DNA from: a virus
Taxonomy: Duplodnaviria > Caudoviricetes
IMG/VR virus record: IMGVR_UViG_3300022178_002083
Span: 1-27,751 of that record
Direction: 5' to 3' (one strand)
DNA length: 27,751 nucleotides
Below the pieces are notes generated by a model. That model did no database searches. It saw nothing but the letters and a program-made list of their open reading frames with translations, and had not been told where the DNA came from. Shown piece by piece: positions 1,831-27,620 of the stretch (position 1 is the stretch's first letter; every line of letters begins with the position of its first letter). Position numbers and translations under genes: made by a program.

Positions 1831-1992
1831 TCATTTGACTGGAGTGATTCTGAAGTGACCTATCATAAGTTCGATAGTTGAGTTACCATAAAGTTGTCTA
1901 CAGGCCTTCTCAAGGACTTGTCCCCGGTTATATTCATTTACTTCTACTACTGTTTCATTACCTGCTCTATCGACAACTCTATACATAGACAT
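1831..1992 (-). CDS. hypothetical protein (53 aa)
   Basis: Start re-called at ATG 1992 (MSMYRVVDRAGNETV...), preceded by a GGAGGAG RBS. The longer ORF-track start runs through hairpins. Confidence 0.65.
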   Translation of the reverse strand: MSMYRVVDRAGNETVVEVNEYNRGQVLEKACRQLYGNSTIELMIGHFRITPVK

Positions 1993-2010
1993 AACTCCTC
2001 CGTTAAGGTT

Positions 2011-2050
2011 AAAAAAAATAAAAGGGCATGGTGGTTTTAACGACTGCCCT
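2011..2050 (-). terminator. probable terminator after the holin-like gene
   Basis: Minus strand AGGGCA-(16 nt)-TGCCCT followed by TTTATTTTTTTT. Confidence 0.5.
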
Positions 2051-2103
2051 ACACCGCTAAACAGGGGAGAAAATGTAAAAACCCCCAGGTTAACCACCTA
2101 ACC

Positions 2104-2529
2104 TTATTTGACTTGAGATGATCCGAAGTAAAATCCTACCAATGCTAACATAGTCTGTCTAACCTCTGGTAGTAAAACGTATCCCTGTAATTCAATCCAA
2201 CCATTTCCTTTAGCAAACATATCACCAAAGAGGAATCCAAAAACGCCTCCTGTTGATCCTGCCTCAATAGTAACTGGTTCATTGAAGAATGCAAGTATGA
2301 ATGGCGCAAATATTACAGCGAATAATGTACACAGAGCAATAACCCTGCGAATCCATACACCGCCCGCACCTGTTCTTTTGGCCGCAGCATCAGCAGAAGC
2401 ATCCGCAGCACCTTGTTTCTTGAGCATACCTTCAAGCATTTGAGCTTGGTTCTGTGTATTGGCGGCAATGAGCTTCATAATGAAACCACTCATACTACCA
2501 CCAAGCATAGCTAATAGTTCTACACTCAT
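2104..2529 (-). CDS. holin-like multi-pass membrane protein
   Basis: Hydrophobic N-terminal helix, central TM (VIALCTLFAVIFAPFILAFF) and C-terminal LVGFYFGS typical of 3TM-holin-like phage proteins; lies at the end of the late operon. Confidence 0.65.
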   Translation of the reverse strand: MSVELLAMLGGSMSGFIMKLIAANTQNQAQMLEGMLKKQGAADASADAAAKRTGAGGVWIRRVIALCTLFAVIFAPFILAFFNEPVTIEAGSTGGVFGFLFGDMFAKGNGWIELQGYVLLPEVRQTMLALVGFYFGSSQVK

Positions 2530-2762
2530 CTATATCTCGCTGTTTTTTTAGCAATCTTCTTGGGCTGTTTAACGAATTGCTTACCCTGTTTGTTACCTTT
2601 TGCTTTCGCACGATTGGTTGCTGCCTTCTCAGCAGGAGATAATGATTTCCACGCAGCGTCTGGAAGGTATCTTTTTTTACCCTTCGAGGGTTTGCCATCT
2701 GATGTACGCCACTTCTGTTTCGTCCATTTGTTGAGCATAGTCTGTGGCTTCTTCATTGCCAT
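2526..2762 (-). CDS. basic protein, DUF5872-like C-terminal half
   Basis: KWTKQKWRT...RYLPDAAWKSLSPAEKAATNRAK...GKQFVKQP; very Lys-rich. Confidence 0.7.
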   Translation of the reverse strand: MAMKKPQTMLNKWTKQKWRTSDGKPSKGKKRYLPDAAWKSLSPAEKAATNRAKAKGNKQGKQFVKQPKKIAKKTARYR

Positions 2763-2938
2763 TAGTCTCTGTAGCCTCCACCTTTAGCCTTGTACTGACG
2801 AGCCAACATCTGTGCCTTACGAGCCGACCATTGGCCTGGCTTACCACCTTTACCACTTGCTTTGATGCGATTGAATAGTGTCTTACGCATTCCTGGTTTA
2901 GTGTAGTTACCTGCCTCGTTGACTCGTGACTTCTTCAT
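2762..2938 (-). CDS. basic protein, DUF5872-like N-terminal half (58 aa, missing from the ORF track)
   Basis: MKKSRVNEAGNYTKPGMRKTLFNRIKASGKGGKPGQWSARKAQMLARQYKAKGGGYRD*; coupled to both neighbours. Confidence 0.75.
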   Translation of the reverse strand: MKKSRVNEAGNYTKPGMRKTLFNRIKASGKGGKPGQWSARKAQMLARQYKAKGGGYRD

Positions 2939-3135
2939 CGCAGTAACTTGCCTCCGAGTATAGCAATACCTGCTAGTACAATACCGACAAACAGCGCACG
3001 GCCGATCATCAATGATGTTGTGTCTACTACCTTAAGTATCTGTCCGAGTACCGGGAGGTGCTTACTATCAATATACTTAGAAGCAGTTGATACCCACTCT
3101 TTTTCTTTCACGCTAAAGCTACCATCTGCTTTCAT
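2935..3135 (-). CDS. small membrane protein with a C-terminal TM
   Basis: 66 aa, TM ALFVGIVLAGIAILGG; overlaps both neighbours. Confidence 0.7.
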   Translation of the reverse strand: MKADGSFSVKEKEWVSTASKYIDSKHLPVLGQILKVVDTTSLMIGRALFVGIVLAGIAILGGKLLR

Positions 3136-3680
3136 TATCGATTCCTCGCTAGTAGTAGTAGGCCACCTGCTAGTCCAACCATGCCAATAGCGGCAGGTTC
3201 AGGAACAACTGTTAGCTCTGCATCGCTGTATATTTTAAAATCAACTGTACCTAAAGACTCAGGATCATAGCTTGTGATAACAGCCACTAGCTCGTTAGAG
3301 AACTCAACGTCTTCGAGGTAGAAAAATAATCCATCTTCAAGCTCTTCATTACCATCATCGTCTGAGGCCTGGAGAGTGTAGACTTCAGCGAACCCAGATG
3401 TGCCATCGAACATACGATTCTCTATTGAGTACAGGTAAAGGTATGGGTCGTTGTAGTCATACTCATCTTGGTATGAGAACAGGTCTGCATCGTAGTTGTC
3501 GAAGGTTACAGTAGCATCACCATCTGTGTAGATACGGAACACGTCATAGTGAAACTTCTCCTGCTCATCAAAGAAGTAGTTTCCTTCTGATAAGGTAGCA
3601 GTCAAATCGTATTCGTAATCCGCATAGGCTGAAATACCTACACCCAACATCAAAGCTATACTCAATAATAATTTCTTCAT
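3135..3680 (-). CDS. secreted PEP-CTERM sorting-domain protein
   Basis: Signal peptide MKKLLLSIALMLGVGISAYA. Acidic beta domain with DPYLYLY...ASDDDG (PPC/DVUA0089-like). C-terminal VVPEP, TM helix, then RNR. Confidence 0.85.
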   Translation of the reverse strand: MKKLLLSIALMLGVGISAYADYEYDLTATLSEGNYFFDEQEKFHYDVFRIYTDGDATVTFDNYDADLFSYQDEYDYNDPYLYLYSIENRMFDGTSGFAEVYTLQASDDDGNEELEDGLFFYLEDVEFSNELVAVITSYDPESLGTVDFKIYSDAELTVVPEPAAIGMVGLAGGLLLLARNR

Positions 3681-3681
3681 C

Positions 3682-3834
3682 CTACTTTCTCTTGGTTACC
3701 CATCTTATAAACTTTCTGAACTTGTTGTTTTTAGGCAGAAACATAGAGATAGTTGCTAGGATTCCAAGTGTAGCTACACCTGCACCGATCAAGTTATCCT
3801 GTATCTGCTCCATAATAATCTTTAAATAAATCAT
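3682..3834 (-). CDS. small membrane protein (50 aa, missing from the ORF track)
   Basis: MIYLKIIMEQIQDNLIGAGVATLGILATISMFLPKNNKFRKFIRWVTKRK*: one TM plus a basic tail; fills the gap exactly with an ATGA overlap. Confidence 0.7.
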   Translation of the reverse strand: MIYLKIIMEQIQDNLIGAGVATLGILATISMFLPKNNKFRKFIRWVTKRK

Positions 3835-4352
3835 ATATCGCTCCCATCTGACTCGTTGTTGAGATTGTTGGGTACTGCACCATTAGCGAATGCGTCTTTC
3901 ACCGCTTGTTCTGCCTCACTCACTTCTGTCTTACCTTCGCCCACCTTGATGCCCATAAACGACTTGGTCTTGGGTATCTCTTGATCAGAGAACTTGGAGC
4001 CTTCGGGTGGTGTGATTGTACCTGTGGTGTTTAGCTCCTGTATCATAGGTGCGGCTTCTTGTACGATCTGTACTGAGTTGTCTACGATTGCGTCTGCTTG
4101 GAAGTATGTAGCAGAGCTAAGTGCGATAACGCCTGATGCACCAATGCTTTGAGCCTGTGCGATGGCTGTGCTGATTACAGTTTCTTTTGCGATCTCGGCT
4201 GATACTTCGATAGCACCAGAGCCTATGGATTCGGTTACTGTTTCCTTGCCAGAGTAGATATCATTAGGCTTCTCCACCTTAATCTTCTCACCGCTACTTT
4301 CGGTGGAAGTGATGTAGCCCTCAATGATTACCTTCTGACCATCCTCAATCAT
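3831..4352 (-). CDS. hypothetical protein
   Basis: 173-aa ORF, co-oriented and overlapping its neighbours; no motif recognised. Confidence 0.7.
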   Translation of the reverse strand: MIEDGQKVIIEGYITSTESSGEKIKVEKPNDIYSGKETVTESIGSGAIEVSAEIAKETVISTAIAQAQSIGASGVIALSSATYFQADAIVDNSVQIVQEAAPMIQELNTTGTITPPEGSKFSDQEIPKTKSFMGIKVGEGKTEVSEAEQAVKDAFANGAVPNNLNNESDGSDI

Positions 4353-4587
4353 CTAGTTCCCATCTAAACAATACTTCATTAACAACACTAGCTACTTCGT
4401 CTGATGTGAGTGCTGTATAATCTGAAACTTCTAATGCAAACGTACCTGCATCGGTTTGCTCTGGAACAGTAATGTATTGAGTTGTGTTATCTCCATCCCA
4501 ACCTAATGGGCATTGTAGTCGGCCTTCTTCTTCAGCCTTTGCCCAAGCATTTGCCTCGTTTGTAAATACTAAATAACTACCAATCAT
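4345..4587 (-). CDS. hypothetical protein, possible tail accessory/chaperone
   Basis: 80-aa acidic ORF coupled to the upstream tail-like gene. Confidence 0.6.
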   Translation of the reverse strand: MIGSYLVFTNEANAWAKAEEEGRLQCPLGWDGDNTTQYITVPEQTDAGTFALEVSDYTALTSDEVASVVNEVLFRWELDD

Positions 4588-5504
4588 ACGCTTAACCCAT
4601 TTAATGCACCTATTAATGAATTTTGTTCATCTAAACTCAATGATCTGTCAAATATACAAGCACAAGATAAGTTAAAGTTTTGACCTGCTGATCTAAACGT
4701 AGAGCCAACTCGCCATCCACCAATACCAAATCTAGTTGTAGCAGGTTCAGTAATTGTACCGCAGTCATCTGTATTATCTACTGGACTTTGGTTGTCGTGT
4801 CTAACTCGTCTACTTGTTGTACTTGTGTGAACTGAGTAGATTGATTTACCAACACTAGTTGTAGGACTTAATGTAATAGAAGCAGTTTTAAGAGATGAAC
4901 CAAAGTCATCCGCTTTGTATATTTCATCACCGCCTGTTATCTGTGTTGTTAGCTGTCTATGTGCGGCTCCGTGTACTGGAACAAAACCAAAACTTGTTCC
5001 ACCACTACTTGCATTATAGTAAGTAAATAATGGGTTGGCATAACTTGTATTAGAATCACTTTGAGGTCTGTATCTAGCACCAAATGTTAGGTCGCCATCA
5101 AAGTCCGCTCTAGTACCTATAGCTGATATATCAAGGCTGTGAACAAAATCATTTTGAAAACTTATAGAACGCTCTGAAGCTGAACCACGCAATGGTTGAT
5201 ACCCTACTGTTCCCATCTGCAAGTGAGTGTTAGATGAGTTACTGCCACCTGCCACTTGGTCATACATCTTTGCTACACGAGCAGTAGTACCACTAGCAAA
5301 CGTATCGTATGTAGAACCCCAAAGCTCTTCCTCAGTAAAGTCCTGTTCAGCCGCATCACTAGCTCGTCTAAGTCGTACAATAGGCTGATTGCTATGCATG
5401 ATATCTGTAGAGCCATACACAGCAAAAGGATTTAAGTCAGCTAATGCACTACTTCCCTCATATCTAGGAAATGAGATATTACCTAATGACAGATTTAAAT
5501 GCAT
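4584..5504 (-). CDS. putative tail/receptor-binding protein (lectin/LamG-like beta-sandwich)
   Basis: S/T/G-rich. VRLRRASDAAEQDF...VAKMYDQ and C-terminal IFDRSLSLDEQNSL resemble concanavalin-like phage tail domains. Confidence 0.55.
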   Translation of the reverse strand: MHLNLSLGNISFPRYEGSSALADLNPFAVYGSTDIMHSNQPIVRLRRASDAAEQDFTEEELWGSTYDTFASGTTARVAKMYDQVAGGSNSSNTHLQMGTVGYQPLRGSASERSISFQNDFVHSLDISAIGTRADFDGDLTFGARYRPQSDSNTSYANPLFTYYNASSGGTSFGFVPVHGAAHRQLTTQITGGDEIYKADDFGSSLKTASITLSPTTSVGKSIYSVHTSTTSRRVRHDNQSPVDNTDDCGTITEPATTRFGIGGWRVGSTFRSAGQNFNLSCACIFDRSLSLDEQNSLIGALNGLSV

Positions 5505-5845
5505 TACGAAGTCGCTGTTTCAATATCCAAAGGAACAACTACAACAATTTGACTTGCTGTTATGTAACCATTTGCAGGTAAGATGAAAGGCCGAGTGCTG
5601 TTTTTAGCTGCGATAAATCCAACGCTATCACCTGCTGATGGTGTTCCTGATGCAGCTGATCCTACTTGAATTTTGAAGTAGCAGTCAGTCGAGCTAGTAT
5701 TGTGTACTTCAACAATAAGCTCATCAGTTTCAGATAATCTTTCTCCTGTTCCTGCAGAAGCTATCTGTATAGCACCAGAAGTCTTTAAGCCACCAACCTG
5801 TATGGTCGTACCTTTACCTCCGAATTGTTTTGCCGGGATTCCCAT
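5504..5845 (-). CDS. putative small virion structural protein
   Basis: 113 aa, beta-rich, AGGAG RBS, TAATG-coupled to the 306-aa gene. Confidence 0.6.
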   Translation of the reverse strand: MGIPAKQFGGKGTTIQVGGLKTSGAIQIASAGTGERLSETDELIVEVHNTSSTDCYFKIQVGSAASGTPSAGDSVGFIAAKNSTRPFILPANGYITASQIVVVVPLDIETATS

Positions 5846-5867
5846 ATAATTTCTCCTATCTGGTTAG

Positions 5868-5909: not shown

Positions 5910-8900
5910 TTAATAAGTAGGTAATTTAATTCTTTTCACCTTCTTCTTCTTTTTCTCTGTTCTAGTTTGCATTGATAAACCTACAAACTCACCTGCTAGC
6001 TCCGTAGCTATCTCGTTAAATGCGTGGTCGTTCTCTATGCCTTCCCATACATTCGCAAGAGATATAGGCATTGCTCTCTCACCTAGTACACGATACCAGG
6101 CAATGTCTTCTCTGGTTACGTACCGCTTACCAGTAAGTAGCTCTGCACTACCGCTGATCCATGGCGATGCTTTGTATTTAAAGAACGTGTTAAGAGCCTG
6201 CTGTGTTATGTCTACCTTCACTTCTTCACCAGACAATCTCTTAACGGCCGCATCACTTGCTTTAGCTAGTAATCTGAAGTTCGGCCCCATGCCTGCAAAC
6301 AAGTCCATTCTAGTTCTTCCAAACTTAATTAAGCCAAAGTCAGACTCTTCTGGGTCATCGCCAACCTCTGCGCCTGCTAGTAGTGCAAATCCAAATACAA
6401 TAGAGTAGGTTGTAATTAGTGATGCCCATTGTTTAGCTATCTCTTCAGCTACGGCTCTCTCTTCGTTCTTAACGAAACCTTTGTACATCTTGCCAACTGC
6501 CTCTGGTGCTACAAAGAATCTAGATGCTGCGAATCGTGGTGAGAACATCAATGTAGATAAGAACTGCGCCCCTGCTTCAAGCTGATATAAGTCTCCACGG
6601 CCAGACGCTGTATTGATGTAGTGGGCCATAGATTTTAGCTCAAGCTGTGTAGCGTTAGGATTAGCCTCTACGAATGCGTCAAACGCTGCGGCTCTCATAA
6701 CATTCAACATGATAACCATGTGACGCTCTGATGCACCCATAACCACAGATACTGGTTTACCTACTCCCGGTAGCTTGTATATTACGTCCAATGCTTTCGA
6801 GCTAAATGCCTCTTCCGATATATTCAAACCTGTATCTAGTGATGAGAAGAATAAACCTGCACCCTCTCGTATAAGTGACATCTCATCGTTTTCTAATATA
6901 GTCATCACTTGACTAGCAAAGGTAGGATCAAGCATAGCTTTTGCTGCTATACCAACCGATTTGACAAACTCCTTAGGATGACGCACACCAAGTAAGAAAC
7001 CCTGTCTGAATACAGCAGACATATCAGCGGTAGCCATAAACGCACGAGGTAGTGCCGCCCAATCAGCTATCTGCTCAAATGTAGTTCTTGGTTTGAGGTC
7101 GTTAATTGCACGTCTAATTAAACGCTCGTTTCTGGCCTGGACATCTAGCAGAAGTTTTAACTCCTCATCCATTATCTCTTTTTTCTCTTTAGGGTTGAGA
7201 TAAGTAGCGAAGTCACGCTCATTCATTATGCGCTCTTGCTCCGCTATTTTAGCCTTAACATTCTCTTTACGCTTCTCTTCGAACTTGATCTGTTGTGCCT
7301 GCTGATACCACTCGGTGTCACGAATCTGCTGTCTTAGCTCCTCGATAGTCTCACCGTATCCCATTGGGTCTGTGATCTGTGGCTTTTCTTTTTCTGGCAG
7401 TCTACCAGTTGCAAGTATCTCGTTTAGTTCACCTATGCGATCTTGCTGACGTAGTAGCTTCTGCTTCTCTTTAATGCTGAGTTGTACATCGTTAAGCTGT
7501 TCTCTTTGCTTGGGTGCTACATTAGCTCTGTACCATCCTGCGACTTGATTGCTTAGTTCTTCTAGTCTAGCCTTTTGCTCGGCTTCTACTCTAGCTTTAC
7601 GCTCTGCATCATTCTTAATGCGTCTAGCTTCTTTGATCTGTAGCTCTAGCTCTTTGATCTCTGTGCGGAATGCCTCTAGTCTTTGTGACTGTGGGTGACG
7701 AGTGTTGCGAGCAAACTTAGGTGGCTCACCGTAGTCAATGATAGTGCGTAGCAGTAGAAGTCTATCTTGCGCTCGGAGTTCAGCACGTTTGGTAAACAGT
7801 TGTTCAGCGGCTTTCTTAATGCGCTCTGACTGTTCTTTCTTCTGTGGCCGTATAGGACGAGATATCTCATCTAAGTATATTTCGATGTTACTAATCTCTG
7901 TAAGCATACGAGCAACGGCCGCATCTTCTTTTACACTAGCTGAGTGCGCTTCTTTTAGCTTGTTAAGTATGTTGCGTAAATTCTGTACCTCTGCTGACTT
8001 AGGACGCTGTACACGTTTAGGATCAAATATTTCATCCATTGCATTGTTAATCTGAACCATCAAGTCTGACTGTAAAGTCAACGCCTTCAACACTTTACGT
8101 GCTTCTGATTCAGTCTTAGGTATACGCTGAATACGGCCAGATATAGCACCATATATATCGAAGTCTAATACATCTGGTAGTACGCCTCTAATCTCACCAA
8201 CGATATCATCGAGGTCTCTGTAACCCTCTTGTATTAATACTTTAGCCATCTCACGAATGTCTGTAGCCAGGCTAGGTGATATTGCATACATCTGAGACTT
8301 ACCAAATCCAGTAATGTCATATCCCTTCTTCTGCATGCGTTCAATGAGTTTGTCTTTTTGTGACAGAGTTTTCTTACCTGCTTTTGTTCCGACACTCTTA
8401 ACTTCTTGATCTATAAATAGCTTGCCTGCTTTTCTGTCTTGATCACGAACAGTAGTTTCTTGTTTGCGTCTGTAATCTTCCACAGCCTGTCTACTTGCTT
8501 CAAACTCCTCAGACAACTCGCTTAAGTTCTTAAGCTCTTCTTCAGTTAAATCATCTGTGTTGCCTAGTCGTTGTTTAGCGTATGTGGCTCGTCTAATTAT
8601 AGATACGAGTGAGTAGTCTTCGTTAAGAGCTATTCTTCTCGCATTTAACGCACGGCCAGTAGCAGAACCAGAACGAGCATCTGCTCTCACTAGTAGGCTG
8701 ATTTCTGCTAGTCTGTCTTCATACTGCTTGCTTAAATCTACAATAGTGTTCTGGCTAGTAGATTGCTCAATAGAGTCTCTGATCTCATTAAGCTCATTGC
8801 GTAGCTGAGTAACACGATACACAAGCATGGCGTGTTGCTGATCGCTGAGTATAAGATCATTCTCAAGAGCATCGATAGCTAAGTTTTTAACATCTATTGG

Positions 8901-11900
8901 GTCTGCGTTTTTGGCAGCGTTAGCTATTAGTGTAGAGAATCGTTTTGCCTGCTGTATTGGTAGCTCACCTAAGTTCAATGTTCTCATTAGGATTTTGATT
9001 TCTTTTAACGTGAGCTTTGTCTGACCTTCTAATTGTTCATCGTCATACAAGAACTCTTCGTCTACGTAATCTTCGTACCAGTCATCAGCGTCATCAGGAA
9101 CATACTCTGTATTTTCTTCTTCAAACTCTTCGTATGTATCCTCATTATATGTTTGTTCTTCCTCTAAAATCTCTTGCTCTCTACGAGCTTCTTGCTGTCT
9201 AGCTTTCTCTAACTCGGCTTCAAGGAAGTCATCTGGCAACTGAGCCTTACCAATCATGGGTGCTATAAACTCTTTACTAATAACACCTTGTATACCGTTA
9301 CCTAACATAGCACGGTTAAGTGCAACATTTGGTGTTAGTTCAGCATCTGTAGGTAAGTTCATGTACGCTAGATACATTGGCGTTGTAGCACGTTTAATTA
9401 AGAAGCCTGTATTCTCATCGGCCTCTCTTATTTGCTTAGTAGTAGCACCATAGTAGTTAGCTGTGTATTTTAATCCTTTTTCTCTAACCATTGTACGTAC
9501 TGGTAGTGCAACACGCATAACGCCAGACGAACCTACTAGAGTACCATCTGGTAAGACCTTCTTCTGCTTAATACCTTTTTTGCGTAGCTTCTCGTCATAT
9601 AAGAAGTTAGCTGTTAATGCATTACCTGCTGAACCCTGTGGTCTGTATTCACCATCTCCACCGGGATTAATAAACGCATCGTCAATGCTATATACGCCTG
9701 CTGTAACCTTAGTAAGCAAGTTTGCTAACACTTGTGTTACTTTACCTGTTCTAGCACCACGACCACCTGTAAACTGTGCAGCCTCATCAACTGGTGCATC
9801 TTTAAAGAATGGACGCATAGCTTCATACCAGTCACCATCTCTATGCTCTTTAGGTGCTTCTGGTAGAGGTGTAAGTGATGCACGTACAATCAACCGATGC
9901 CTGGTCGAGTTTCCACCGTAGTCTGCTGCGTTTGGTGTAAGCTCTTCAAAGTAGTATCCCGCCTTCTGTAATGCTTTGCGGATGACATTGTATTGTTCTG
10001 AATCCTGGTATGCAGGTGCATTTTCAATCGTAAGGTTTTTAGGTTTTACCTCTGTGATTATTCTAGCTAGTTTACGAGCAATCTTCATCTCTAACTTGAA
10101 GTCTTCCTCTGTAACTTTACCTTTTATTCTAGCCGCACTAAATGCCTGGCAAGGTGGTGACATATGTATGAACTGTACACCTTTGTCTATAAGTGTCTGT
10201 GGTTTTAACTTAAGTATGTCTGTAGGAACTTCTGCTGCGCCATGCACTAAGTTATAGTTATCTACAATACCTTGCTCGATCTCAGCTGTTGCTTTTACAT
10301 CAAACCCTAGTAGTTTACCTATACCTAACTCTACTGTACCCATACCAGAAAAGAATGTTGCTATTGGCAATCTAGTATCTTCTTCGATGGGTAACTGGAA
10401 CTTAGCATCATCACGTAAAATCCCTAGTGTTTCTTTCTGCGCTTGCTTCTGCAAACGGAACTTAGGATGATCTGGTGTTACTACATCTGCATTCTTAGCG
10501 AATACTAGCCCACCAATCTGTACAACTTCGTCTGCACCTAGTACAGGCATCCCAACTTTCTCACCCTCTCTAACGTAGAAAAACGAGCGTCTGAAGGGAT
10601 TGTATCCGATCTGAGTCCAAGTAGGGTCGTTCATGACTTCTTCAGCGAGAGCATAGTTTTCTTGGTCTGTAGAGTCTATATACTCACCTTGCATCACAGA
10701 CACAGAAGTTTTGGCTATTTGACCTACCGCAATCTTGGTTGCTGTCATAGTTGGTGACACCATGCGTACATTCTTGGCTCTAGCTGTAGCTGTATACGCA
10801 ATAGCTTTGCCACCCTTGGCATGCATAGTAACTACATACTGGCCTATAGGGTTGCCGTCTGCATCTTTCTTGGTATATGCAGGTATATCGAGTCTTAGTC
10901 CAACAATCGTGCCTGCCTCTGGCTTCTTATTAACTAATGGTGCTTGGTCTTTCTTCAGCACATCTTTCATTTGTTTGGCAGTTGGTAGCTGTGGTAGCAC
11001 ATCAAATCTACGAATAGGGTCAAACTTCTGCTGTATCTCTACAAACTGCTCATATGTAATCTCATTCGCAAAGTAACGCTTGATAGCTTCTACTACTTGA
11101 GGTATGCGATCAAAGTTAAGCATATAGTCCGATGATAGCTGTGCTTTGCCTTGTGGTGCTACCTGGGCAACCTTAGATACACCACTAGTAGGGTAGAACT
11201 TTTTAAGGCCGTCACCCTCAACATAAGTCCCGGTTGTAGGATCAATGACGGCAGTATCCCACATATACCGATCTTTCAGAATATGTAGCACAGGCCGATC
11301 ACCGTTTTCAGATACAATCGCAAATGGGTACGACTCGTGTTCGTATGTTTCGTGTAGTTTTAATGGCCCACGTATTTCTACTACAGCGTATATCTCACCG
11401 CCTTGTTGTCTGGAAACTGTAGGTTGACCTTCTACGGCATTCTTGAGGATTGGTTCAGCTAACATCTCAGCTATGTGACGTAGTCCTACTGTGCCTAGAT
11501 CACCCTTTTGTCTCTCAGCTATTTTAAGAGCAGATGTTTCTTTTTGAGTCTGCCCCTTCTTAACTTCGCCTTTTGGTCTTTCGTAAATTTTAATGCTGTC
11601 GTAGAACGCTAATAGGTCTTTGCCAAGCTCTTCATTTTGTTTAGCTAGTTTGCCAATCTCACGGATTACCTCATTAGCAAATGCACCTCTTTGTTTGAAT
11701 GTAGATACCAATGCGCCTAGCTTTGTTCTAATCTGAGATAGGTCTGCTGTGTCTAACTTAATATGTCTACTTGCTTTCTTGAGGATAGCATCTAGTTCGG
11801 CCTGGCTTAGAGGGAAGTCTGGGTCTAAGGCCATATCAGCAAACAAATCAACAATAGCATTCGAGCCTAGTGTAGAACCAAACTCTTTGCCACGAGGTGC

Positions 11901-14900
11901 TGATGTTAGTGCCATGCGTACTGTGCCACCGTTCTCTACGCCCGCTTTGTTTAGTACGTTAAGTAGGGCTGTTGCACCCCCTTTTGTACTAGCCCAGAAG
12001 TATCCTTGCTCGTTGTACTTGATTGGGTAGTACATACCACCCTTACCTTTTACTAGTATTCTGTTGCCACGAGATATAGAACCAGAGAACAATGCATCTG
12101 GTTGGTGCAATACAATAGAGCTATCCGCAAAGTCTCGTATGCTTCTGTCCCTAGTAATGTAGCCATCCTTCTCTAATTCACGAAACTCTGATGAGTCCAC
12201 ATCATAGAAATATGTCATGCCAGTATCTAGGTCAGAATAACTAGGTTGGAACTTACTTCGACCAAAAGCTGTTTCACCTTCGGATTTGTAGCCTTGAACT
12301 TGTTCTAATCCTATTTCGTCTAGTAAGGCTAAGTCCTCCTCTAAGATGCGCTCACCTCTAGTAGTTTTACCTGCTATGACTTGTAGTAGCTCAATAGCAC
12401 GGCCCTCGCTAGATACTGGTATGACACCCTTAAATATCGTAGCTAAGAAATCTTGTATTCTAGCTTTGAGGCTAGGTTGTAACGCATCGAAGTTATCGGC
12501 TAATATACCCGCTAGTTCTGCTATAACCTCTTCGTTTATATCTTCTTTTATACGTTCGCCTGCCGCAATGTAATACTCACCATCGGCAACACGATCTTCT
12601 TGCAACATCTCCATACCTTCACTAATTAAGCGATCAGAGTATGCAAGGTAAGTAGCTCTAAAGTTAGCTATTCTTTGACGCTGTTTTGCAGGTAGCTTGG
12701 TTTTTGCAAGCATATCATTTAGAATACGATCAGCAGCTACACGAATGTTTTCATCGCTCTTAAACTTCTGGTGAAACACAGCATGTACTACTTCGTGGGC
12801 TACAGTACCCTTTGTGGCTGTTTCTGGGTTAAGCAGAATGCTACTCTTCATATCGTAGTAGCCGTTTCCTATAGAACCAGTTTTGTTAATAAAATCTTGT
12901 TCACTCTGAGCAAATTCAATTGTTACATTAGGTGCTACACCACGTAATGCAATCTCTGCTCTGCGAACCATTTTTTGACGTTGTTTTTCTAGTCTGCGTC
13001 TTTTGCCTTTGTTTTCTTTCTTACGTTTAGGTTGTTCGGATACTTCTGGCTCTGGCGTTTCGAGTGATTCTTCTACTTCTATTTGTTTGCCATCTTTCTC
13101 AACCAACTGTTTAACAGCAGCGTTACGTGCCTCCTCAACAGTCTGTCCTTCTTCTATAATAAGGTTATCGTCATAATCACCATTTAATATCTTAGCAATT
13201 ACCGTTTGAGCAGTTGCATCTACTTCGTATTCATTATCGAACTCAATTCCTTCGACTTGAAATCCTTTGCGCTCTGGCTCATCTAATGCTTCTGGGGTTA
13301 CTTCTTCTGGCTCTTCGGCCTCACCTTTTATAGCTTCATCGTAGGCTTGATTGATAAGTGTATTATATTCCCGTCGGGCATCCATGTTGCCGTACACAGC
13401 ATTAACAAATACATCAGCCTTTGCTTCGTCTCTAATTAATCCTCTTAGTTCTGCCTCGCTATAAATTGTAGCAAACTGGTCGAAGTCATAGTCTGTAAGA
13501 ATCTCGCCCTGCATTGTAACCAGGCCAGTTTCATCATAGATTTGTCCTGCCTTCTGTTCTTCGATCTTAAACTTCTTGGCTAGTTCAATTCCATCATATG
13601 TCTTATTGATTTCTTGAGTTACGGCCTTAAAAGTAGACTCATTACCTGCCGCATTTGCCATTTCACGAGCATATTCTTTTGCTTGAGCAGGCGTAAAACC
13701 CATATCTATAAGGTTTGATTCTGTTTGAGTTATATAGTTTTTAGCCTGTATACCCCTCATAGCAGCGCCGGGTACCGCTAGTACACTTGATATACGCAAT
13801 GCACCTATAGTTGAGTCTTTAAATCCATCAAAAAAATCTACTTTTTCTTTGTTGAGGCCATACTTTTCATTAGCAACACTAACACCTTGGTTGTATATTA
13901 GATTATATAAAGCCTGCTGACTGTTTTCTTCTAGTACGTTTTCTAAAGAAAGGCCCGCTGTTTTAGCTAGGTGTCCTACAAAAGTAGTAGTGAATTGACG
14001 TTGTAGTTTTGCAGGGTTAACATTTAACTTACCTGCTAATTTTATAAATGCTTTTGACTGATAGTATTCAATAGCACCAGAGCCTGCTGCATAAACACTA
14101 GCCATTGCGTTAGCTAGACCGTATCTTTCCATTAAAGCGTCATACTCTTCATCATTACCAGTAAACTCTTCTCTGGTGGGTAGTATTCTTGGTACGTCAA
14201 ACAAATTTTCAAATGCCTCAAGACTGTGTTTCTTTTCTTGAGAATACATAAAAGCTATACCATATTGAATAGGAAGAAAACCACCTGCTAGGTTGGGTGC
14301 GTTACTAAGAGTAGCCGCAATAGCAGCAGATATAGAAAAGAAGTTCTCATCTCCCGCCTTAGTTCGTAACTCTTCCATATCGGTTTTCATTCCTTCAGGA
14401 ACAAGTTCAATAAACTGGTCTATCTTAGAAGCAATAACCTGCGCTTTTTGTTTAGCACGTTTCTTTTCATCTTCTGTATCTAATGGATTAAAGGTATTAG
14501 TCATACCATCTAGCATAGGATTGCCTGTGGTAATATTTCCAGATGCTGTATTTAATGTAAAAATTCTTGATGCTTCTTCGAGTACACCTTCAGCAGATGT
14601 AAGAAACTCACCTACTGTGCCGCTAACGTACTCTCCAAATTTCATTTCCTCAAAGTCACCGCTGTAATATTGGAACTCTCTGCCTAGCTCCTCTTTAATA
14701 GCCGTGTAATCGATCATAGGTGTATCGACTTTGAATCTTTGTCTAATAAACGCATCGACCTCTTGATCGTCCATCTGACGGCCATATTGAGCGTTAAATC
14801 CACTTCCGTATCTTTGTCTAACAAACTCCCTCGTAGCGACACGATCGACCTGTAGCATACCCATATCGCTGCTGTAGAACTCTCTGTCAGACAAGTCGGT

Positions 14901-15002
14901 TGTTTCACGAACTGGATTGTACATCAACGCATCAAATGGACTATGAGTCAAAGTGCGGGCAGTAGGAACACTACCCCCAAGTGGTCTTTTATTTTCTAGC
15001 AT
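5910..15002 (-). CDS. giant polyvalent internal virion/ejection protein (gp16 position) with zincin metallopeptidase and C5-cytosine DNA methyltransferase domains
   Basis: 3030 aa, last of three genes after tail tubular B. HEVVH at 12783-12797 with downstream NEEVIAE. MTase motifs FFSGMG, SPPCQAFS, IENAP, RHR and LGNGI between ~10370 and ~9250. Long coiled-coil C-terminal half. Confidence 0.85.
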   Translation of the reverse strand: MLENKRPLGGSVPTARTLTHSPFDALMYNPVRETTDLSDREFYSSDMGMLQVDRVATREFVRQRYGSGFNAQYGRQMDDQEVDAFIRQRFKVDTPMIDYTAIKEELGREFQYYSGDFEEMKFGEYVSGTVGEFLTSAEGVLEEASRIFTLNTASGNITTGNPMLDGMTNTFNPLDTEDEKKRAKQKAQVIASKIDQFIELVPEGMKTDMEELRTKAGDENFFSISAAIAATLSNAPNLAGGFLPIQYGIAFMYSQEKKHSLEAFENLFDVPRILPTREEFTGNDEEYDALMERYGLANAMASVYAAGSGAIEYYQSKAFIKLAGKLNVNPAKLQRQFTTTFVGHLAKTAGLSLENVLEENSQQALYNLIYNQGVSVANEKYGLNKEKVDFFDGFKDSTIGALRISSVLAVPGAAMRGIQAKNYITQTESNLIDMGFTPAQAKEYAREMANAAGNESTFKAVTQEINKTYDGIELAKKFKIEEQKAGQIYDETGLVTMQGEILTDYDFDQFATIYSEAELRGLIRDEAKADVFVNAVYGNMDARREYNTLINQAYDEAIKGEAEEPEEVTPEALDEPERKGFQVEGIEFDNEYEVDATAQTVIAKILNGDYDDNLIIEEGQTVEEARNAAVKQLVEKDGKQIEVEESLETPEPEVSEQPKRKKENKGKRRRLEKQRQKMVRRAEIALRGVAPNVTIEFAQSEQDFINKTGSIGNGYYDMKSSILLNPETATKGTVAHEVVHAVFHQKFKSDENIRVAADRILNDMLAKTKLPAKQRQRIANFRATYLAYSDRLISEGMEMLQEDRVADGEYYIAAGERIKEDINEEVIAELAGILADNFDALQPSLKARIQDFLATIFKGVIPVSSEGRAIELLQVIAGKTTRGERILEEDLALLDEIGLEQVQGYKSEGETAFGRSKFQPSYSDLDTGMTYFYDVDSSEFRELEKDGYITRDRSIRDFADSSIVLHQPDALFSGSISRGNRILVKGKGGMYYPIKYNEQGYFWASTKGGATALLNVLNKAGVENGGTVRMALTSAPRGKEFGSTLGSNAIVDLFADMALDPDFPLSQAELDAILKKASRHIKLDTADLSQIRTKLGALVSTFKQRGAFANEVIREIGKLAKQNEELGKDLLAFYDSIKIYERPKGEVKKGQTQKETSALKIAERQKGDLGTVGLRHIAEMLAEPILKNAVEGQPTVSRQQGGEIYAVVEIRGPLKLHETYEHESYPFAIVSENGDRPVLHILKDRYMWDTAVIDPTTGTYVEGDGLKKFYPTSGVSKVAQVAPQGKAQLSSDYMLNFDRIPQVVEAIKRYFANEITYEQFVEIQQKFDPIRRFDVLPQLPTAKQMKDVLKKDQAPLVNKKPEAGTIVGLRLDIPAYTKKDADGNPIGQYVVTMHAKGGKAIAYTATARAKNVRMVSPTMTATKIAVGQIAKTSVSVMQGEYIDSTDQENYALAEEVMNDPTWTQIGYNPFRRSFFYVREGEKVGMPVLGADEVVQIGGLVFAKNADVVTPDHPKFRLQKQAQKETLGILRDDAKFQLPIEEDTRLPIATFFSGMGTVELGIGKLLGFDVKATAEIEQGIVDNYNLVHGAAEVPTDILKLKPQTLIDKGVQFIHMSPPCQAFSAARIKGKVTEEDFKLEMKIARKLARIITEVKPKNLTIENAPAYQDSEQYNVIRKALQKAGYYFEELTPNAADYGGNSTRHRLIVRASLTPLPEAPKEHRDGDWYEAMRPFFKDAPVDEAAQFTGGRGARTGKVTQVLANLLTKVTAGVYSIDDAFINPGGDGEYRPQGSAGNALTANFLYDEKLRKKGIKQKKVLPDGTLVGSSGVMRVALPVRTMVREKGLKYTANYYGATTKQIREADENTGFLIKRATTPMYLAYMNLPTDAELTPNVALNRAMLGNGIQGVISKEFIAPMIGKAQLPDDFLEAELEKARQQEARREQEILEEEQTYNEDTYEEFEEENTEYVPDDADDWYEDYVDEEFLYDDEQLEGQTKLTLKEIKILMRTLNLGELPIQQAKRFSTLIANAAKNADPIDVKNLAIDALENDLILSDQQHAMLVYRVTQLRNELNEIRDSIEQSTSQNTIVDLSKQYEDRLAEISLLVRADARSGSATGRALNARRIALNEDYSLVSIIRRATYAKQRLGNTDDLTEEELKNLSELSEEFEASRQAVEDYRRKQETTVRDQDRKAGKLFIDQEVKSVGTKAGKKTLSQKDKLIERMQKKGYDITGFGKSQMYAISPSLATDIREMAKVLIQEGYRDLDDIVGEIRGVLPDVLDFDIYGAISGRIQRIPKTESEARKVLKALTLQSDLMVQINNAMDEIFDPKRVQRPKSAEVQNLRNILNKLKEAHSASVKEDAAVARMLTEISNIEIYLDEISRPIRPQKKEQSERIKKAAEQLFTKRAELRAQDRLLLLRTIIDYGEPPKFARNTRHPQSQRLEAFRTEIKELELQIKEARRIKNDAERKARVEAEQKARLEELSNQVAGWYRANVAPKQREQLNDVQLSIKEKQKLLRQQDRIGELNEILATGRLPEKEKPQITDPMGYGETIEELRQQIRDTEWYQQAQQIKFEEKRKENVKAKIAEQERIMNERDFATYLNPKEKKEIMDEELKLLLDVQARNERLIRRAINDLKPRTTFEQIADWAALPRAFMATADMSAVFRQGFLLGVRHPKEFVKSVGIAAKAMLDPTFASQVMTILENDEMSLIREGAGLFFSSLDTGLNISEEAFSSKALDVIYKLPGVGKPVSVVMGASERHMVIMLNVMRAAAFDAFVEANPNATQLELKSMAHYINTASGRGDLYQLEAGAQFLSTLMFSPRFAASRFFVAPEAVGKMYKGFVKNEERAVAEEIAKQWASLITTYSIVFGFALLAGAEVGDDPEESDFGLIKFGRTRMDLFAGMGPNFRLLAKASDAAVKRLSGEEVKVDITQQALNTFFKYKASPWISGSAELLTGKRYVTREDIAWYRVLGERAMPISLANVWEGIENDHAFNEIATELAGEFVGLSMQTRTEKKKKKVKRIKLPTY

Positions 15003-22760: not shown

Positions 22761-23756
22761 TTAAGATTCTAAACAAGGAACAACGACAACTTTTTCTTCT
22801 TCCATGCGGACAGCACCGAACTCTGCCTTCATGTAAGCGTAGTAGTTGAATGATTTATCAGCCCGTTCACTAATCTTAGTAGTCATGTCGGGGTTGATTT
22901 CCAACAACGCAGCATCTGGCATAAATGCATAAGCAGCACGAGTGTTAGAACTATCCGTGTTGCTCCATGTGCCAGTTGTTGTATTGATGTCACCGTCATC
23001 TGCATTGATGTCTGTTGAGTCGTAAGCAGTAGTTTTATCCGCATCCATATAAGGAAGGATATTGCTAATGCAGAACTTCGCACCCATGTAGTCATAAACA
23101 GTTCCTACAGACTGATCAACAGGACGTTGAGAGGTGTAGTCAAAGTTAATGAAGTTATCATCATCCATCATGTCTTTCCATTGTTTCCAAGAAATCTTGA
23201 AAATAGGAGCTTGTGTGTCGATGTCTACGTTGTTGCTACCGAATGCTTCTAGAGCAGCTAAGAACTTCTTATAAGTGAAGCCTTCCGCAGTTCCTGAAGT
23301 AGTTACGTCAACTTCGATGAAGTTAGATGTACCAAGTTCAGTATCTGTTTCACCTTCAACGCCACCTTTAGCCGTACCCAAAAGAGCTTGGTCAAGGATG
23401 ATGTCTTCCTGGCGAAGGAACTTATTCTTCATGATAGCTAACTTAGCAGCACGAGGATCAACTCCCATCTTACTTACGTCAGCCCAATCCATGAACTGGC
23501 CGTCTTGGTAAGATACACGAGATGTCCGTCTACGGCTGTAGTCGATGTCTGATACGGGTGAGTCCCCGAAACGATTGACAACCTTTGAAGGTAGGCCGCC
23601 ACCTGCTGTGCGTTGGTAAACACCTTCTTTACGGAACAGATCGCCAGTAGCAAGCTGTACGTAAGGACGAAGTTTACCGCCTTTGACTTCAACCGTCTCA
23701 CGAATAGCACGGTCAAAACCAATCACGTATGTATTGAGCAAATTTCCTGCTCCCAT
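22761..23756 (-). CDS. major capsid protein
   Basis: 331 aa. KLRPYV, DYSRRR, RQEDIILDQALLG and ISERADKS...FGAVRMEEEKVV match BPP-1/pelagiphage-type capsids; follows the scaffold. Confidence 0.88.
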   Translation of the reverse strand: MGAGNLLNTYVIGFDRAIRETVEVKGGKLRPYVQLATGDLFRKEGVYQRTAGGGLPSKVVNRFGDSPVSDIDYSRRRTSRVSYQDGQFMDWADVSKMGVDPRAAKLAIMKNKFLRQEDIILDQALLGTAKGGVEGETDTELGTSNFIEVDVTTSGTAEGFTYKKFLAALEAFGSNNVDIDTQAPIFKISWKQWKDMMDDDNFINFDYTSQRPVDQSVGTVYDYMGAKFCISNILPYMDADKTTAYDSTDINADDGDINTTTGTWSNTDSSNTRAAYAFMPDAALLEINPDMTTKISERADKSFNYYAYMKAEFGAVRMEEEKVVVVPCLES

Positions 23757-23925: not shown

Positions 23926-23932
23926 GATAATA

Positions 23933-24772
23933 TTAATAATTATTAAACTGAATCTCTGCTTGTTTTTCTAGCAACTGCGCTCGCTCACGTAGAAGACTCT
24001 GATAAGTTGCATCAGAAGTGTTTGGGTGTGCGTATAGTTTGCTATCAAGTTCAGCAAGTTGATCGCTAATAGTATGAATATTATCCATAGTTCGAGCTTC
24101 AATAACTTCATCGTTATCAAGCAACGGTACTACATTCTCAAACCAGGCCTTTACGAACTCTGGGTTGTTGGCAATAGTAGGGTCATCTTTGAACTCGCCT
24201 AGACCTAGAAAGTCTAATGAGTTTGCTACCTTGGCTAAGTTGTAATCGTACTGATCACCTTTCCACTCATTGCGTAGTGAAGTCTCAGCTTCGTGTAGTT
24301 GCGCTTCGTACTGTCTATCGGAGTCACCTAATGACTGGCCAACCTTTTCTAGCTCCCAATCAACCAGAGCTTGTGCTGCTTCCTTAGACAAACCATTCTC
24401 GTAAGCAAACTGCTTAAACTCATTGATTCGCTCTTCGTCAACATCAACCCCTTCGGGTGCGTTGTAGTTGATATCGTATTCATCTGGTGATGAACCGATG
24501 CCCATTAGTTCGTTGCGCTTTGCAATGTCAGCTTCGCTTTCTGATGCCCAGAACTCTTCAGCTTTGCGTCCCGCCATACTTTGTGCGTTGATAGCACCTT
24601 TGACTAAGTCGACAGGATTATCGTATTTAGACCAGATTGAGTGGTTACCCAACTCGTCTGGTAGTGACTCACGCCATGATTGATTAAACTTCCCATCATC
24701 CGTGAGAATATCAACAGGCTGTGTTGCAGTTTCCTCAACTGAGGGTGCTTCGACAGGTGTCTGTTCTTCCAT
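23933..24772 (-). CDS. capsid scaffolding protein
   Basis: 279 aa, acidic. WRESLPDEL, PDEYDI, GLSKEAAQAL and LRNEWKG motifs; directly upstream of the MCP. Confidence 0.8.
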   Translation of the reverse strand: MEEQTPVEAPSVEETATQPVDILTDDGKFNQSWRESLPDELGNHSIWSKYDNPVDLVKGAINAQSMAGRKAEEFWASESEADIAKRNELMGIGSSPDEYDINYNAPEGVDVDEERINEFKQFAYENGLSKEAAQALVDWELEKVGQSLGDSDRQYEAQLHEAETSLRNEWKGDQYDYNLAKVANSLDFLGLGEFKDDPTIANNPEFVKAWFENVVPLLDNDEVIEARTMDNIHTISDQLAELDSKLYAHPNTSDATYQSLLRERAQLLEKQAEIQFNNY

Positions 24773-24787
24773 GTATTACCTCTTTGG

Positions 24788-24925
24788 TTAGTATTTTGTC
24801 ATAAGGGTCTTCTTTTTCTTCTTACCCTTTTTAAGAGCCTTTAAATCTGCTCCAGTAATTTTATTACGTGGTTCAGCTACAGCAGCCATTTTCTTCTGCT
24901 TGCTCGAATATTTTGAATACGGCAT
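24788..24925 (-). CDS. small Lys-rich protein (45 aa, missing from the ORF track)
   Basis: MPYSKYSSKQKKMAAVAEPRNKITGADLKALKKGKKKKKTLMTKY*; GGAGG RBS; fills the gap. Confidence 0.7.
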   Translation of the reverse strand: MPYSKYSSKQKKMAAVAEPRNKITGADLKALKKGKKKKKTLMTKY

Positions 24926-25210
24926 TTAGCACCTCCATCTACGCCTTGCGGCCTTTCCTCTTTCGCCAGTCCAACCTCTAGACCTAGCACAAAATGATTT
25001 ACGTCTTTTAGCAGCTTTACTTCCAGGCTTTACTTTACCAGTAACAGCAGTTTTAAGTTTGCTACCCGGATTTGCTCTGCGGTGAGCGGCAACACCTTTA
25101 GCGGTCATACCTGCACCCTCTTTAGCAGAACGATAGTTGCGACCTTTACCTTTAGTTGTTTTTGGTATTGCTTTTTCTTTCTTTCTAGAAAGCAAGGTTC
25201 GTTTGGGCAT
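24926..25210 (-). CDS. basic protein, DUF6321-like
   Basis: GMTAKGVAAHRRANPGSKLKTAVT...RRKSFCARS...RRRWRC; AGGAG RBS. Confidence 0.7.
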   Translation of the reverse strand: MPKRTLLSRKKEKAIPKTTKGKGRNYRSAKEGAGMTAKGVAAHRRANPGSKLKTAVTGKVKPGSKAAKRRKSFCARSRGWTGERGKAARRRWRC

Positions 25211-25772
25211 TCTCTTCTCCTAACTCTTGTTGAAAACTTACTTCTTCTAAATCCCACTCTGGGTCTTGATTCAACAGACGCTTAAAGTTCTTGTATGCTC
25301 TATTGGGGACTTGTGTGAAATATTTACTAGAACTAAAATCACCCTTTGCAAAATTTTTATACTTCAACTCAGAACCTATTTTCCGAGTATGAATCAGCTT
25401 AAGTACTTCTGTTTCAGCCTCACTAAATTCTTTTATCTCTTTCATCATGTTGGGGAACTTCTTCATCCAGTATGGCCCCATGTTAAATGTAAGATCAATA
25501 AGAGCTGCTTTCTGGCTAACACTTAGCGAATCAAATCCCACAATGCCTTTAGCTGCTTTGTAATGGCTTTCAAAATCTTTCTGAAATAATCTTTCAAGGT
25601 ATGCTTCATTTACGATATCTCCTTCTTTATATTTCTTCAGTTCATCTTTGGTCAGCCTGTGACCAGTACCCATGGTTAAATAACCACGCTTGTCTTCATA
25701 TACATAGTTTCTAAAGCCTTCATTGCTTCTAACCATTAGCTTTAGTTTTCTTTTGAACTCTTCTTCATTCAT
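25185..25772 (-). CDS. GH24 (T4-lysozyme-like) muramidase
   Basis: Start re-called at ATG 25772 (MNEEEF, ATGAATGA overlap). NEGFRNYVYEDKRGYLTMGTGH gives the E-x8-D-x5-T triad; also ALIDLTFNMG. Confidence 0.85.
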   Translation of the reverse strand: MNEEEFKRKLKLMVRSNEGFRNYVYEDKRGYLTMGTGHRLTKDELKKYKEGDIVNEAYLERLFQKDFESHYKAAKGIVGFDSLSVSQKAALIDLTFNMGPYWMKKFPNMMKEIKEFSEAETEVLKLIHTRKIGSELKYKNFAKGDFSSSKYFTQVPNRAYKNFKRLLNQDPEWDLEEVSFQQELGEENAQTNLAF

Positions 25773-25971
25773 CTTCTGATATGATTGCCTCGATGTATCT
25801 GTACATATCTTGTGTTCCATTGCGATAGGCGCAGTCAGCATGACTAAGCTCAGAGCCTGCCTGCACATCAATATTGCAAAAGTCTCTAAGATCATCTAAT
25901 ACCTCTGAACCCTCTGGAGTTTTAAAGACACGTTTGTACGCTGATATTAAGTTAGCTAGTTCGTGTGACAT
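25765..25971 (-). CDS. conserved small protein downstream of the portal (Bbp19-like)
   Basis: YKRVFKTPEGSEVLDDLRDFC...AYRNG motif; TAATG-coupled to the portal. Confidence 0.75.
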   Translation of the reverse strand: MSHELANLISAYKRVFKTPEGSEVLDDLRDFCNIDVQAGSELSHADCAYRNGTQDMYRYIEAIISEDE

Positions 25972-27620
25972 TACTCTCCCAGGTCTAAGCCTTCGGCCAG
26001 TAAGCTATCTGGTGCTACTGAGCCACTAAGTTTCTGAGCCGCATCTGCCAGAGCAGGCATCTGTTGCATCTGTTGTTGTTCTGCCATAGCTGCCGCTTTA
26101 GCTTCACGTTCTTCTGCTACTACCGTAGGATCATTAAGAACATTCATGCTTGAGCTATTGGCGTACCAGATTTCACGGAATAGTTTATCTGGGTCAACAT
26201 TGTCTAGTGATTGTAACATATTGGGATCAAGCTGTGCTAACTCACCAAACATACGAAGAGTAGTAACTGCCCCCATAGTCTCGAACGACTTCGTTGCCAT
26301 TGAGAGTCGGCCTACATAATCGACCTCGTATTCCGGGCTATCAATAAGCTCCTGCGGAATTGGGGGCAAGAGTTTCTTCTTAGCAAGTATGTAGTACACG
26401 TGGTTCATAACAGGAGTAACGTGTTCTTCTACATAGCGAGCCACGAAAGGTGCAAGCTGCATTAAATCGGTTGTCATACGCTCCTGAACTTCAGTAGCCG
26501 TCATGTTGCGGTAAGCATCTAATGGACGGAACAACTGGTTGAAGAACATACGCTTGATAGAATCATCGTGTAGCTTATACATCTCCAACGCAATGCCTGG
26601 GTCACCGTTTGGTGCTAGACGTTCTGGCTTGCCATTAGGGTTAGTAGCCCGCCAACGAATGAAAGACCCTGCACGACTAGACATACCAGAAACGCTATCA
26701 TCGTCAGGGATCAACCATTGAGGATTAGCGTGTTGTTCAGCCGATGCGACCATAGAGCGATAGATAACGTTGGTACGCCTAGCTGTGCCGAGAACCATAC
26801 TCATGGGTGAACGACCATATATCTCTTCGTTGCCCACCATGAATCTAGAAACTTTGTATGGGTTGAAGTCGAATCCACTCTCTTTGACCATAGTGCCTGT
26901 ATCACGGCATACGTGGTAAGATGCGAATGGCTTCTCAGTAGACTTCTTGCCTTTGGGGTTGTAGTCCATACGAGGTTGCACACATTGAATGAATGTGAAC
27001 TTCTTGTCTGGATTGTTCTGCATTTGGTTTTCGATGTTTTGGAACTCAGCAGCTTGTAACGCTTCAATGCCAAACTTCTGTATGGCCTGGCGTAATGTCA
27101 GCTTGTATTCACGAGCTACAGTATCTACTTCACCTAAATGGTTCTCATCAATGCGGATGTTAGACACGATAACATTTTTAAATCGTATAACATTTCTGTC
27201 ATCTTCTTCTAGTGATAGGCAGTTAGTGCCAAAGCAACCTAGAGACAACAACGCCTGGAACGCTTCTTGAGAAAAGTTAGAACCAATCAATACCTGATGG
27301 ATGATACGGCTCACTTCTTCAAAGTAGTTAGCTACATTCTCATTAGCCATCATCATGGGAGATGGGTGACGATACTTAGCCCACACAGTATTCGGTGGAA
27401 ACATATGAGAAAAGAAACCAGAGGCAAAGTTGTAGTTAGCCTCGATGCACGTATCAATCAGACGTTGTGGTGGTTTCTCTTGACCGCCAATACGAATGCG
27501 ATTGATGTTGTCATTAGTCTGATAGCACCAGTCGGCACACTCCTGCCACAGGTTCATCCAATTCCCATGAACATGAGCGTTCATAGAATCGTATTTTTTA
27601 ATAATTGATTTAGCGTCCAT
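25971..27620 (-). CDS. portal protein (head-to-tail connector, T7 gp8/Bbp21 family)
   Basis: 549 aa with WQECADW, FGTNCL, YGRSP and MTATEVQER motifs. Confidence 0.93.
   Translation of the reverse strand: MDAKSIIKKYDSMNAHVHGNWMNLWQECADWCYQTNDNINRIRIGGQEKPPQRLIDTCIEANYNFASGFFSHMFPPNTVWAKYRHPSPMMMANENVANYFEEVSRIIHQVLIGSNFSQEAFQALLSLGCFGTNCLSLEEDDRNVIRFKNVIVSNIRIDENHLGEVDTVAREYKLTLRQAIQKFGIEALQAAEFQNIENQMQNNPDKKFTFIQCVQPRMDYNPKGKKSTEKPFASYHVCRDTGTMVKESGFDFNPYKVSRFMVGNEEIYGRSPMSMVLGTARRTNVIYRSMVASAEQHANPQWLIPDDDSVSGMSSRAGSFIRWRATNPNGKPERLAPNGDPGIALEMYKLHDDSIKRMFFNQLFRPLDAYRNMTATEVQERMTTDLMQLAPFVARYVEEHVTPVMNHVYYILAKKKLLPPIPQELIDSPEYEVDYVGRLSMATKSFETMGAVTTLRMFGELAQLDPNMLQSLDNVDPDKLFREIWYANSSSMNVLNDPTVVAEEREAKAAAMAEQQQMQQMPALADAAQKLSGSVAPDSLLAEGLDLGE

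Follow-up and report, generated by a model that had tools for sequence, protein, structure and literature searches.

CCGG confined to CCSGG in an uncultured podophage: a pattern consistent with methylation shielding and a candidate two-frame C5 methyltransferase

The stretch analysed here, positions 1 to 27,751 of the virus record IMGVR_UViG_3300022178_002083 (27,751 nt in all, hereafter the window), is a 27.7 kb piece of a podophage genome, 74% complete, in which the tetranucleotide CCGG is found only within the pentanucleotide CCSGG. The best explanation of this pattern combines a host nuclease cutting CCGG with methylation of CCSGG by the phage, most likely performed by a two-frame, multi-cassette C5-cytosine methyltransferase; the probability of this combination is put at about 0.45. 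Taken separately, shielding by methylation is highly probable, and a phage origin of the shielding methylation is likely. The signal is real and strong, and belongs as a variant with the anti-restriction methylation already known from phages.

The sites in question are the following.
1924..26336, no strand: 14 CCGG sites, all in CCSGG (1924, 3051, 5833, 6767, 9661, 11230, 13768, 15016, 16639, 16830, 19178, 21433, 25066 and 26333)
The exact count agrees with the original prediction on all 14 coordinates and on their CCSGG context, CCCGG and CCGGG accounting for seven each. Expectations were derived from synonymous-codon shuffling (400 shuffles) and from an order-1 Markov model, which give totals of 22 and about 28 CCGG, respectively, for the window. 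The total is only mildly low and the effect sits in the flanks: CCGG outside CCSGG (DCCGGH) numbers 0 against 17.9 +/- 3.8 expected, with 0 of 400 shuffles reaching 0, and CCSGG is present 14 times against 4.6 under the codon shuffle. The earlier estimate of about 50 expected CCGG holds as a base-composition figure and is lowered by these better nulls, while that of about 30 CCWGG sites is borne out by a count of 34. For CCCGGG (0 versus 1.5) the expectation is too small to inform.

The remainder of the genome was recovered from L195, a metagenome contig matching the window at 99.9% identity, and from the viral contig L005; both continue the same phage, with 99.9-100% identity to the window over the overlaps. 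No extension of the left window edge was found among viral contigs, and the one used came from the metagenome scan that yielded L195.
1..40, no strand: window edge, past which L195 continues
The sequence outside the window amounts to 7,968 nt from L195 and 2,924 nt from L005, whose ends overlap by 63 nt and complete the genome as a composite of 38.6 kb. These stretches contain 8 further CCGG sites, 8/8 in CCSGG, which makes 22/22 overall. The number of CCGG sites outside CCSGG, on which the original prediction hung, is 0 by exact count across the composite; all six DCCGGH hexamer classes are empty, against 7.4, 6.0, 3.8, 5.8, 2.4 and 3.6 expected from the Markov model and 5.7, 6.6, 4.7, 3.7, 2.2 and 2.5 from the codon shuffle. 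About 53 nt are extra in L195 (L195:8178-8230) relative to window positions 1809-1811.

From these counts, together with genes and their co-occurrence, we infer a nuclease, protective marks and an enzyme that lays them. The hosts would carry a CCGG-cutting restriction enzyme of the HpaII/MspI type, among many others. During replication the two-frame enzyme would convert the second C of CCSGG in each strand to 5-methylcytosine, so that an embedded CCGG would be marked at its outer C on one strand and its inner C on the other, and the CCGG cutter would be blocked. A CCGG newly arisen between other flanks would remain unmarked and be selected out; one arising inside CCSGG would be neutral and accumulate, with an excess of about 2.5-fold relative to the codon null. 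CCWGG would be shielded too, either by another cassette or by a methylase domain of a virion protein acting on DNA at entry. By the behaviour given in enzyme catalogues, marks of this kind would block CCGG cutters; the enzymes whose names go with sites of this sort are HpaII, MspI, NciI, ScrFI, AvaII and BanI. A literature statement that CCSGG methylation blocks HpaII/MspI was not found, PMC3141236 included.

The phage genome lacks CGCG, CCAGC, CASTG, GGWCC, AAGCTT, RGATCY, GDGCHC and CYCGRG, a picture of heavy restriction-site avoidance. The window is also devoid of the asymmetric sites CCAGC (0 versus 42), CCCAGT (0 versus 6) and AACCGC (0 versus 7.7), whose loss points to host systems of type IIS/III; CCAGC is kept by most methylase-positive relatives. 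GGCC is twice as frequent in the window as under the codon null (63 versus 31.6), which makes it another candidate target of a methylase.

Methylation of CCNGG should allow other purged sites to survive wherever they overlap it. Dcm methylation at overlapping sites blocks enzymes such as AvaII and BanI, and overlapping methylation would likewise block a second enzyme here; literature support for the AvaII and BanI cases was not found. Survivors were examined in 21 hand-picked genomes for the motifs GGWCC, GGYRCC, RGCGCY, GDGCHC and RGATCY, wherever these stood below 20% of expectation. Of 74 eligible ends, 12 adjoin CCNGG against 2.65 expected (nominal Poisson 2e-5, the matches being not independent, since site 13768 supplies two of them and some of the genomes are closely related, which tempers the result). 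In the present phage 4 of 5 survivors adjoin CCNGG, three at CCSGG (two of them sharing site 13768) and one at CCWGG.
13764..13776, plus strand: RGCGCY and GGYRCC, each the sole copy in the window, overlapping CCGGG at 13768
The geometry does not tell which C carries the mark. That the few remaining copies of these five purged motifs adjoin CCNGG supports shielding by methylation.

Relatives were collected with the major capsid protein as query, which gave 53 loci; a PF00145 search of 40 records matched 11.
22761..23756, minus strand: major capsid protein (PF19821)
Ten relatives are at least 90% complete, five with two PF00145 methylases each and five with none. The methylase-positive genomes keep CCWGG at about its expectation (23-40 sites), whereas the methylase-negative ones have no CCWGG (21-36 expected), no CCSGG and no other CCGG. 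With the 8/8 sites outside the window and the survivors adjoining CCNGG, this absence of CCNGG from methylase-free relatives supports the original proposal that bare CCGG is purged and CCSGG kept through methylation. Every Pro-Gly pair entails a CCNGG in the DNA, and every Gly-Pro pair a GGNCC, so the loss is visible in the proteins. Over open reading frames of 100 aa or more, Pro-Gly occurs 9-20 times in 7/7 methylase-positive genomes and is absent from 10/10 methylase-negative records (G015, G031, G034, G036, G038, G020, G021, G032, G033 and G035; 9-23 expected each), five of the ten being fragments. The latter, with 5,000-10,600 residues each, contain Gly-Pro once or not at all, and in G038 Ala-Ala is missing as well (0 versus 40 expected). 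CGCG, GDGCHC, RGATCY and GGYRCC are purged in both groups. No PF01555 methylase was matched in 19 records, PF01555 being the one adenine methylase family covered.

The candidate enzyme lies in the missing arm, outside the window, which also encodes a DnaB-like helicase and a replication initiator.
L195:11521-12804, minus strand: alpha chain of the two-frame C5 methyltransferase, with motifs I-VIII and X
L195:11544-12818, minus strand: beta chain of the two-frame C5 methyltransferase, with motif IX and five repeat cassettes
The two frames overlap and both are open; a 156-nt indel preserves both, and the alpha stretch opposite the beta cassettes is poorly conserved. Relatives shuffle 4-6 beta cassettes, and within one phage population a 156-nt deletion in L194, relative to L195:12042-12190, takes out exactly the second cassette. 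P0002 and P0003 look like shorter beta alleles too. Homologues of the beta chain number 1,773, with a Pfam domain in 0 of the 120 listed, and a beta relative is encoded at 318 viral loci, of which 80 were kept. The sole GTDB match is L251, a contig of a Rickettsiales metagenome-assembled genome (32% identity), which has no capsid match; a beta-chain match of this kind does not show it to be a host.

A second methylase is encoded in the window itself, in the last place of the T7-like run of tail and internal virion genes.
5910..15002, minus strand: 3030-aa protein
9258..10397, minus strand: C5 cytosine methyltransferase domain, aa about 1536-1915 of the 3030-aa protein
From its place after the tail and internal virion genes, the 3030-aa protein is likely an ejected core protein, packaged in the virion. 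PF00145 matches aa 1550-1777 with 71 bits, and the last conserved motif lies near aa 1900. Motifs I, IV (with the catalytic Cys), VI, VIII and X are present in order; the catalytic Cys, motif VI, the motif VIII Arg pair and motif X are invariant in 8/8 aligned copies, and motif I departs from the consensus in some relatives. The structural model (predicted local distance difference test score 75.6) has an HhaI-like fold, with DNMT2, M.HhaI and M.HaeIII as best matches (template modelling scores 0.42-0.56). By its motifs and this model the domain looks intact; its action on DNA is presumed, the top structural matches including the tRNA-acting DNMT2; searches of the PDB and by fold yielded no target sequence. 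Distant copies (27%) occur in 2,000-aa proteins of G073, G074 and G076, phages of higher guanine-cytosine content without CCGG avoidance.

As to which enzyme accounts for CCSGG, the two-frame methyltransferase stands somewhat short of an even chance. Cassette classes were obtained by automatic clustering alone (83 loci in 38 groups, of which 33 were used and 5 dropped as short or partial). Among the 33 dereplicated beta loci, CCSGG is the site most strongly associated with the class to which the third cassette of this phage belongs (p 1e-3, of 110 tests). CCGG was rejected as the target of the second cassette class, this phage having the class and no bare CCGG, and no association being seen. 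The alternative source is the domain of the 3030-aa protein, which would recognise CCNGG and alone explain the retention of both CCSGG and CCWGG, marking DNA at entry or assembly. This is doubtful, and the domain is probably not the main source of CCSGG marks, remaining the second-best option. It has the C5 methyltransferase fold and is 70% identical to the copy in G002, where the full-length proteins share 62%; none of the four giant proteins of methylase-negative phages that were scanned or searched contains it, and every counted record that carries it keeps CCWGG. In G042, by contrast, the last virion protein is complete (1699 aa) and does not match the methylase domain, the beta chain has two cassettes, and there is no CCWGG (0 versus 8.7), yet CCSGG is shielded (10 versus 2.9, other CCGG 2 versus 12.2). 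G050, 100% complete and also without the virion domain, has a weaker pattern (CCSGG 35 versus 15.2, other CCGG 12 versus 27.5). CCSGG shielding thus appears independent of the virion domain, because G042 and G050 display it without one, and survivors overlapping CCWGG are found without the domain in G050, G046 and G062. G072 has the domain and no CCSGG, where 0.2 expected makes the count uninformative; in the 5 complete genomes the domain always accompanies the two-frame enzyme, and its effect cannot be isolated. L190 (31% complete) resembles G042 in keeping CCSGG and lacking CCWGG. Under joint marking by one enzyme of the ScrFI/SsoII type the two sites would be kept together; both are kept in this phage, but they are decoupled in G042 and L190. 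Judging from these genomes, CCSGG can be shielded without the virion domain and apart from CCWGG, for which, or for all CCNGG, the domain may still provide cover. The single CCNGG specificity of the original prediction is not required; the domain it placed at aa ~1538-1917 exists, and the assignment of the shielding to this domain is weakened by the second methylase and by G042 and G050.

Several results weigh against the attribution to the two-frame enzyme or to the phage at all. The association of the third cassette with CCSGG fails Bonferroni correction (0.11), and that with a shielding index has p 0.03. L143 carries the third-cassette class yet has no CCSGG; other cassette classes fit the division into purged and not purged equally well (class 9: 0/22). 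G042 is only 65% complete, and its cassette belongs to a different class, two of whose carriers, L140 and L181, have no CCSGG. In the terminase tree the methylase-positive phages fall on one side of a branch, and the portal tree does not reject a single methylase-positive clade (approximately unbiased test, p-AU 0.37), so the comparison of five with five is close to one contrast.
25971..27620, minus strand: portal protein (PF12236), used in the family tree
For these trees G012, which had no methylase match, was labelled positive on the strength of its sites and the type of its protein, and G004 replaced the window on terminase. Finally, G036 (100% complete) keeps GGCC (27 versus 48 expected) without a match to PF00145 or PF01555, so that sites can be retained even where no methylase of the phage is detected. 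GGCC is kept in G033 as well as in G036, and GCGC and CGCG in G035, with no methylase found; G036 is complete, the others are fragments.

In a rival reading the marks would come from the host, either from a solitary CCNGG/CCSGG enzyme or from the methylase half of the usual host's system, and the two phage groups would infect different hosts. The caveat in the original prediction that a host methylase could equally be responsible still stands, and such a source is unlikely rather than remote. In its favour are the single clade on terminase, G036, the weak mapping of cassettes to sites, and the occurrence of CCWGG and CCNGG methylation in diverse bacteria, where it is common (PMC11954522). The set of sites purged in both groups, however, points to overlapping hosts, and the capsid tree rejects a single methylase-positive clade (p-AU 4e-8), its genes being mixed between the groups, which suggests gene exchange and hence shared hosts. 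Every site relieved in the positive group, moreover, contains a target of the C5-methylase type.

It is very unlikely that no shielding exists and that hexamer cutters (RCCGGY, WCCGGW and others) have removed the DCCGGH classes one by one. RCCGGY and WCCGGW would account for five of the six empty classes, and the flanks of GCGC here are indeed piecemeal, shaped jointly by avoidance of CGCG, RGCGCY and TGCGCA. The sixth class, GCCGGA/TCCGGC, is likewise empty (0 versus 3.7-5.8); all six are empty in L142 and G009 and nearly so in L190 and G042, and the enrichment of CCSGG and the survivors adjoining CCNGG are left unexplained. Protein constraint or chance, with CCSGG persisting only where Pro-Gly forces it, has next to no likelihood: 6 of the 14 window sites encode Pro-Gly, but 8 of 14 lie in other contexts, Pro-Gly can use the abundant CCWGG (as 6 of 13 do), the 8/8 result holds outside the window, and relatives live without any Pro-Gly.

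The shielding proposed for CCGG has counterparts in known systems. M.EcoHK31I is encoded in overlapping frames. It consists of two polypeptides, a large chain with motifs I-VIII plus X and a small chain with motif IX (PMC3404938), and the two-frame enzyme shares this placement of motif IX on a separate chain. In M.EcoHK31I the predicted recognition domain is on the large chain and the single target is YGGCCR; in the present enzyme the beta chain carries the repeat cassettes, whose DNA binding is putative. The multispecific methylases of Bacillus temperate phages are also phage enzymes with arrayed target-recognition domains that protect against many restriction systems, and BCE_0393, from a Bacillus prophage, marks GCWGC, GGCC, CCGG, GGWCC and CCWGG, which resemble in kind the sites varying among the present phages (PMC3459991 and PMC12707154). 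Unlike in those enzymes, the candidate cassettes here are on a second chain from an overlapping frame, which sets the enzyme outside that group, and are gained or lost within one population (L194 versus L195); a second methylase is present in a likely virion protein, and the proposed specificities come from site counts. P1 DarB, like the 3030-aa protein, has a DNA methylase as part of a giant polypeptide that is likely carried in the virion and acts on DNA as it enters. Both DarB and the polyvalent proteins' methylase-helicase dyad are, however, N6-adenine methylases fused to an SF2 helicase (PMC5512222), whereas the present domain is of the C5-cytosine type and Pfam finds only PF00145, no helicase, in the 3030-aa protein. 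No description of a C5 methylase in an ejection protein was found in the literature covered, which excludes subscription papers; the supplements of PMC5512222 may list C5 domains in polyvalent proteins. Loss of recognition sites is known from phage restriction-site avoidance (PMC6286503), but here it is complete, depends on whether a shielded site overlaps, and extends to the proteins, with no Pro-Gly, no or one Gly-Pro and, in G038, no Ala-Ala. Within the same literature coverage no description was found of conditional CCGG survival or of dipeptide loss through site avoidance.

A tentative extension is that the phage makes a two-layer shield of its own, composed of an injected C5 methylase in the ejection protein and a two-frame enzyme with exchangeable one-site cassettes, whose targets could be decoded from conditional site survival (the third cassette corresponding to CCSGG) and which would buy back protein sequence space. 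If so, Pro-Gly and Gly-Pro, and in G038 Ala-Ala as well, are closed to the proteins of relatives without the shield. The protein-level cost of restriction-site avoidance is measurable, whole dipeptides being gone from proteomes of about 10,000 residues, and would explain why carriage of methylases pays. The site statistics of an uncultured phage are tied here to named enzymes, and candidate targets are offered for a cassette of a large methylase family as well as for the C5 domain of a protein that is likely injected. Should the cassette mapping hold, the exchangeable cassettes, each with a single site, would find use as programmable methylases.

On its minus strand the window encodes a portal, a lysozyme and a capsid protein, tail proteins, an internal virion protein, and two proteins of 562 and 3030 aa. 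By capsid the nearest named phages are pelagiphages of the HTVC010P type, with less than 30% identity; no named phage with a capsid identity above 30% was found, and the capsid gives no pointer to a host. Among the relatives, GATC is fully absent from G034, G038 (L043, L050), L032-L034, L047 and L055 and kept in the others. In G041 the pattern is reversed, other CCGG being kept (8 versus 5.8) and CCSGG absent, with a weak expectation of 1.4.

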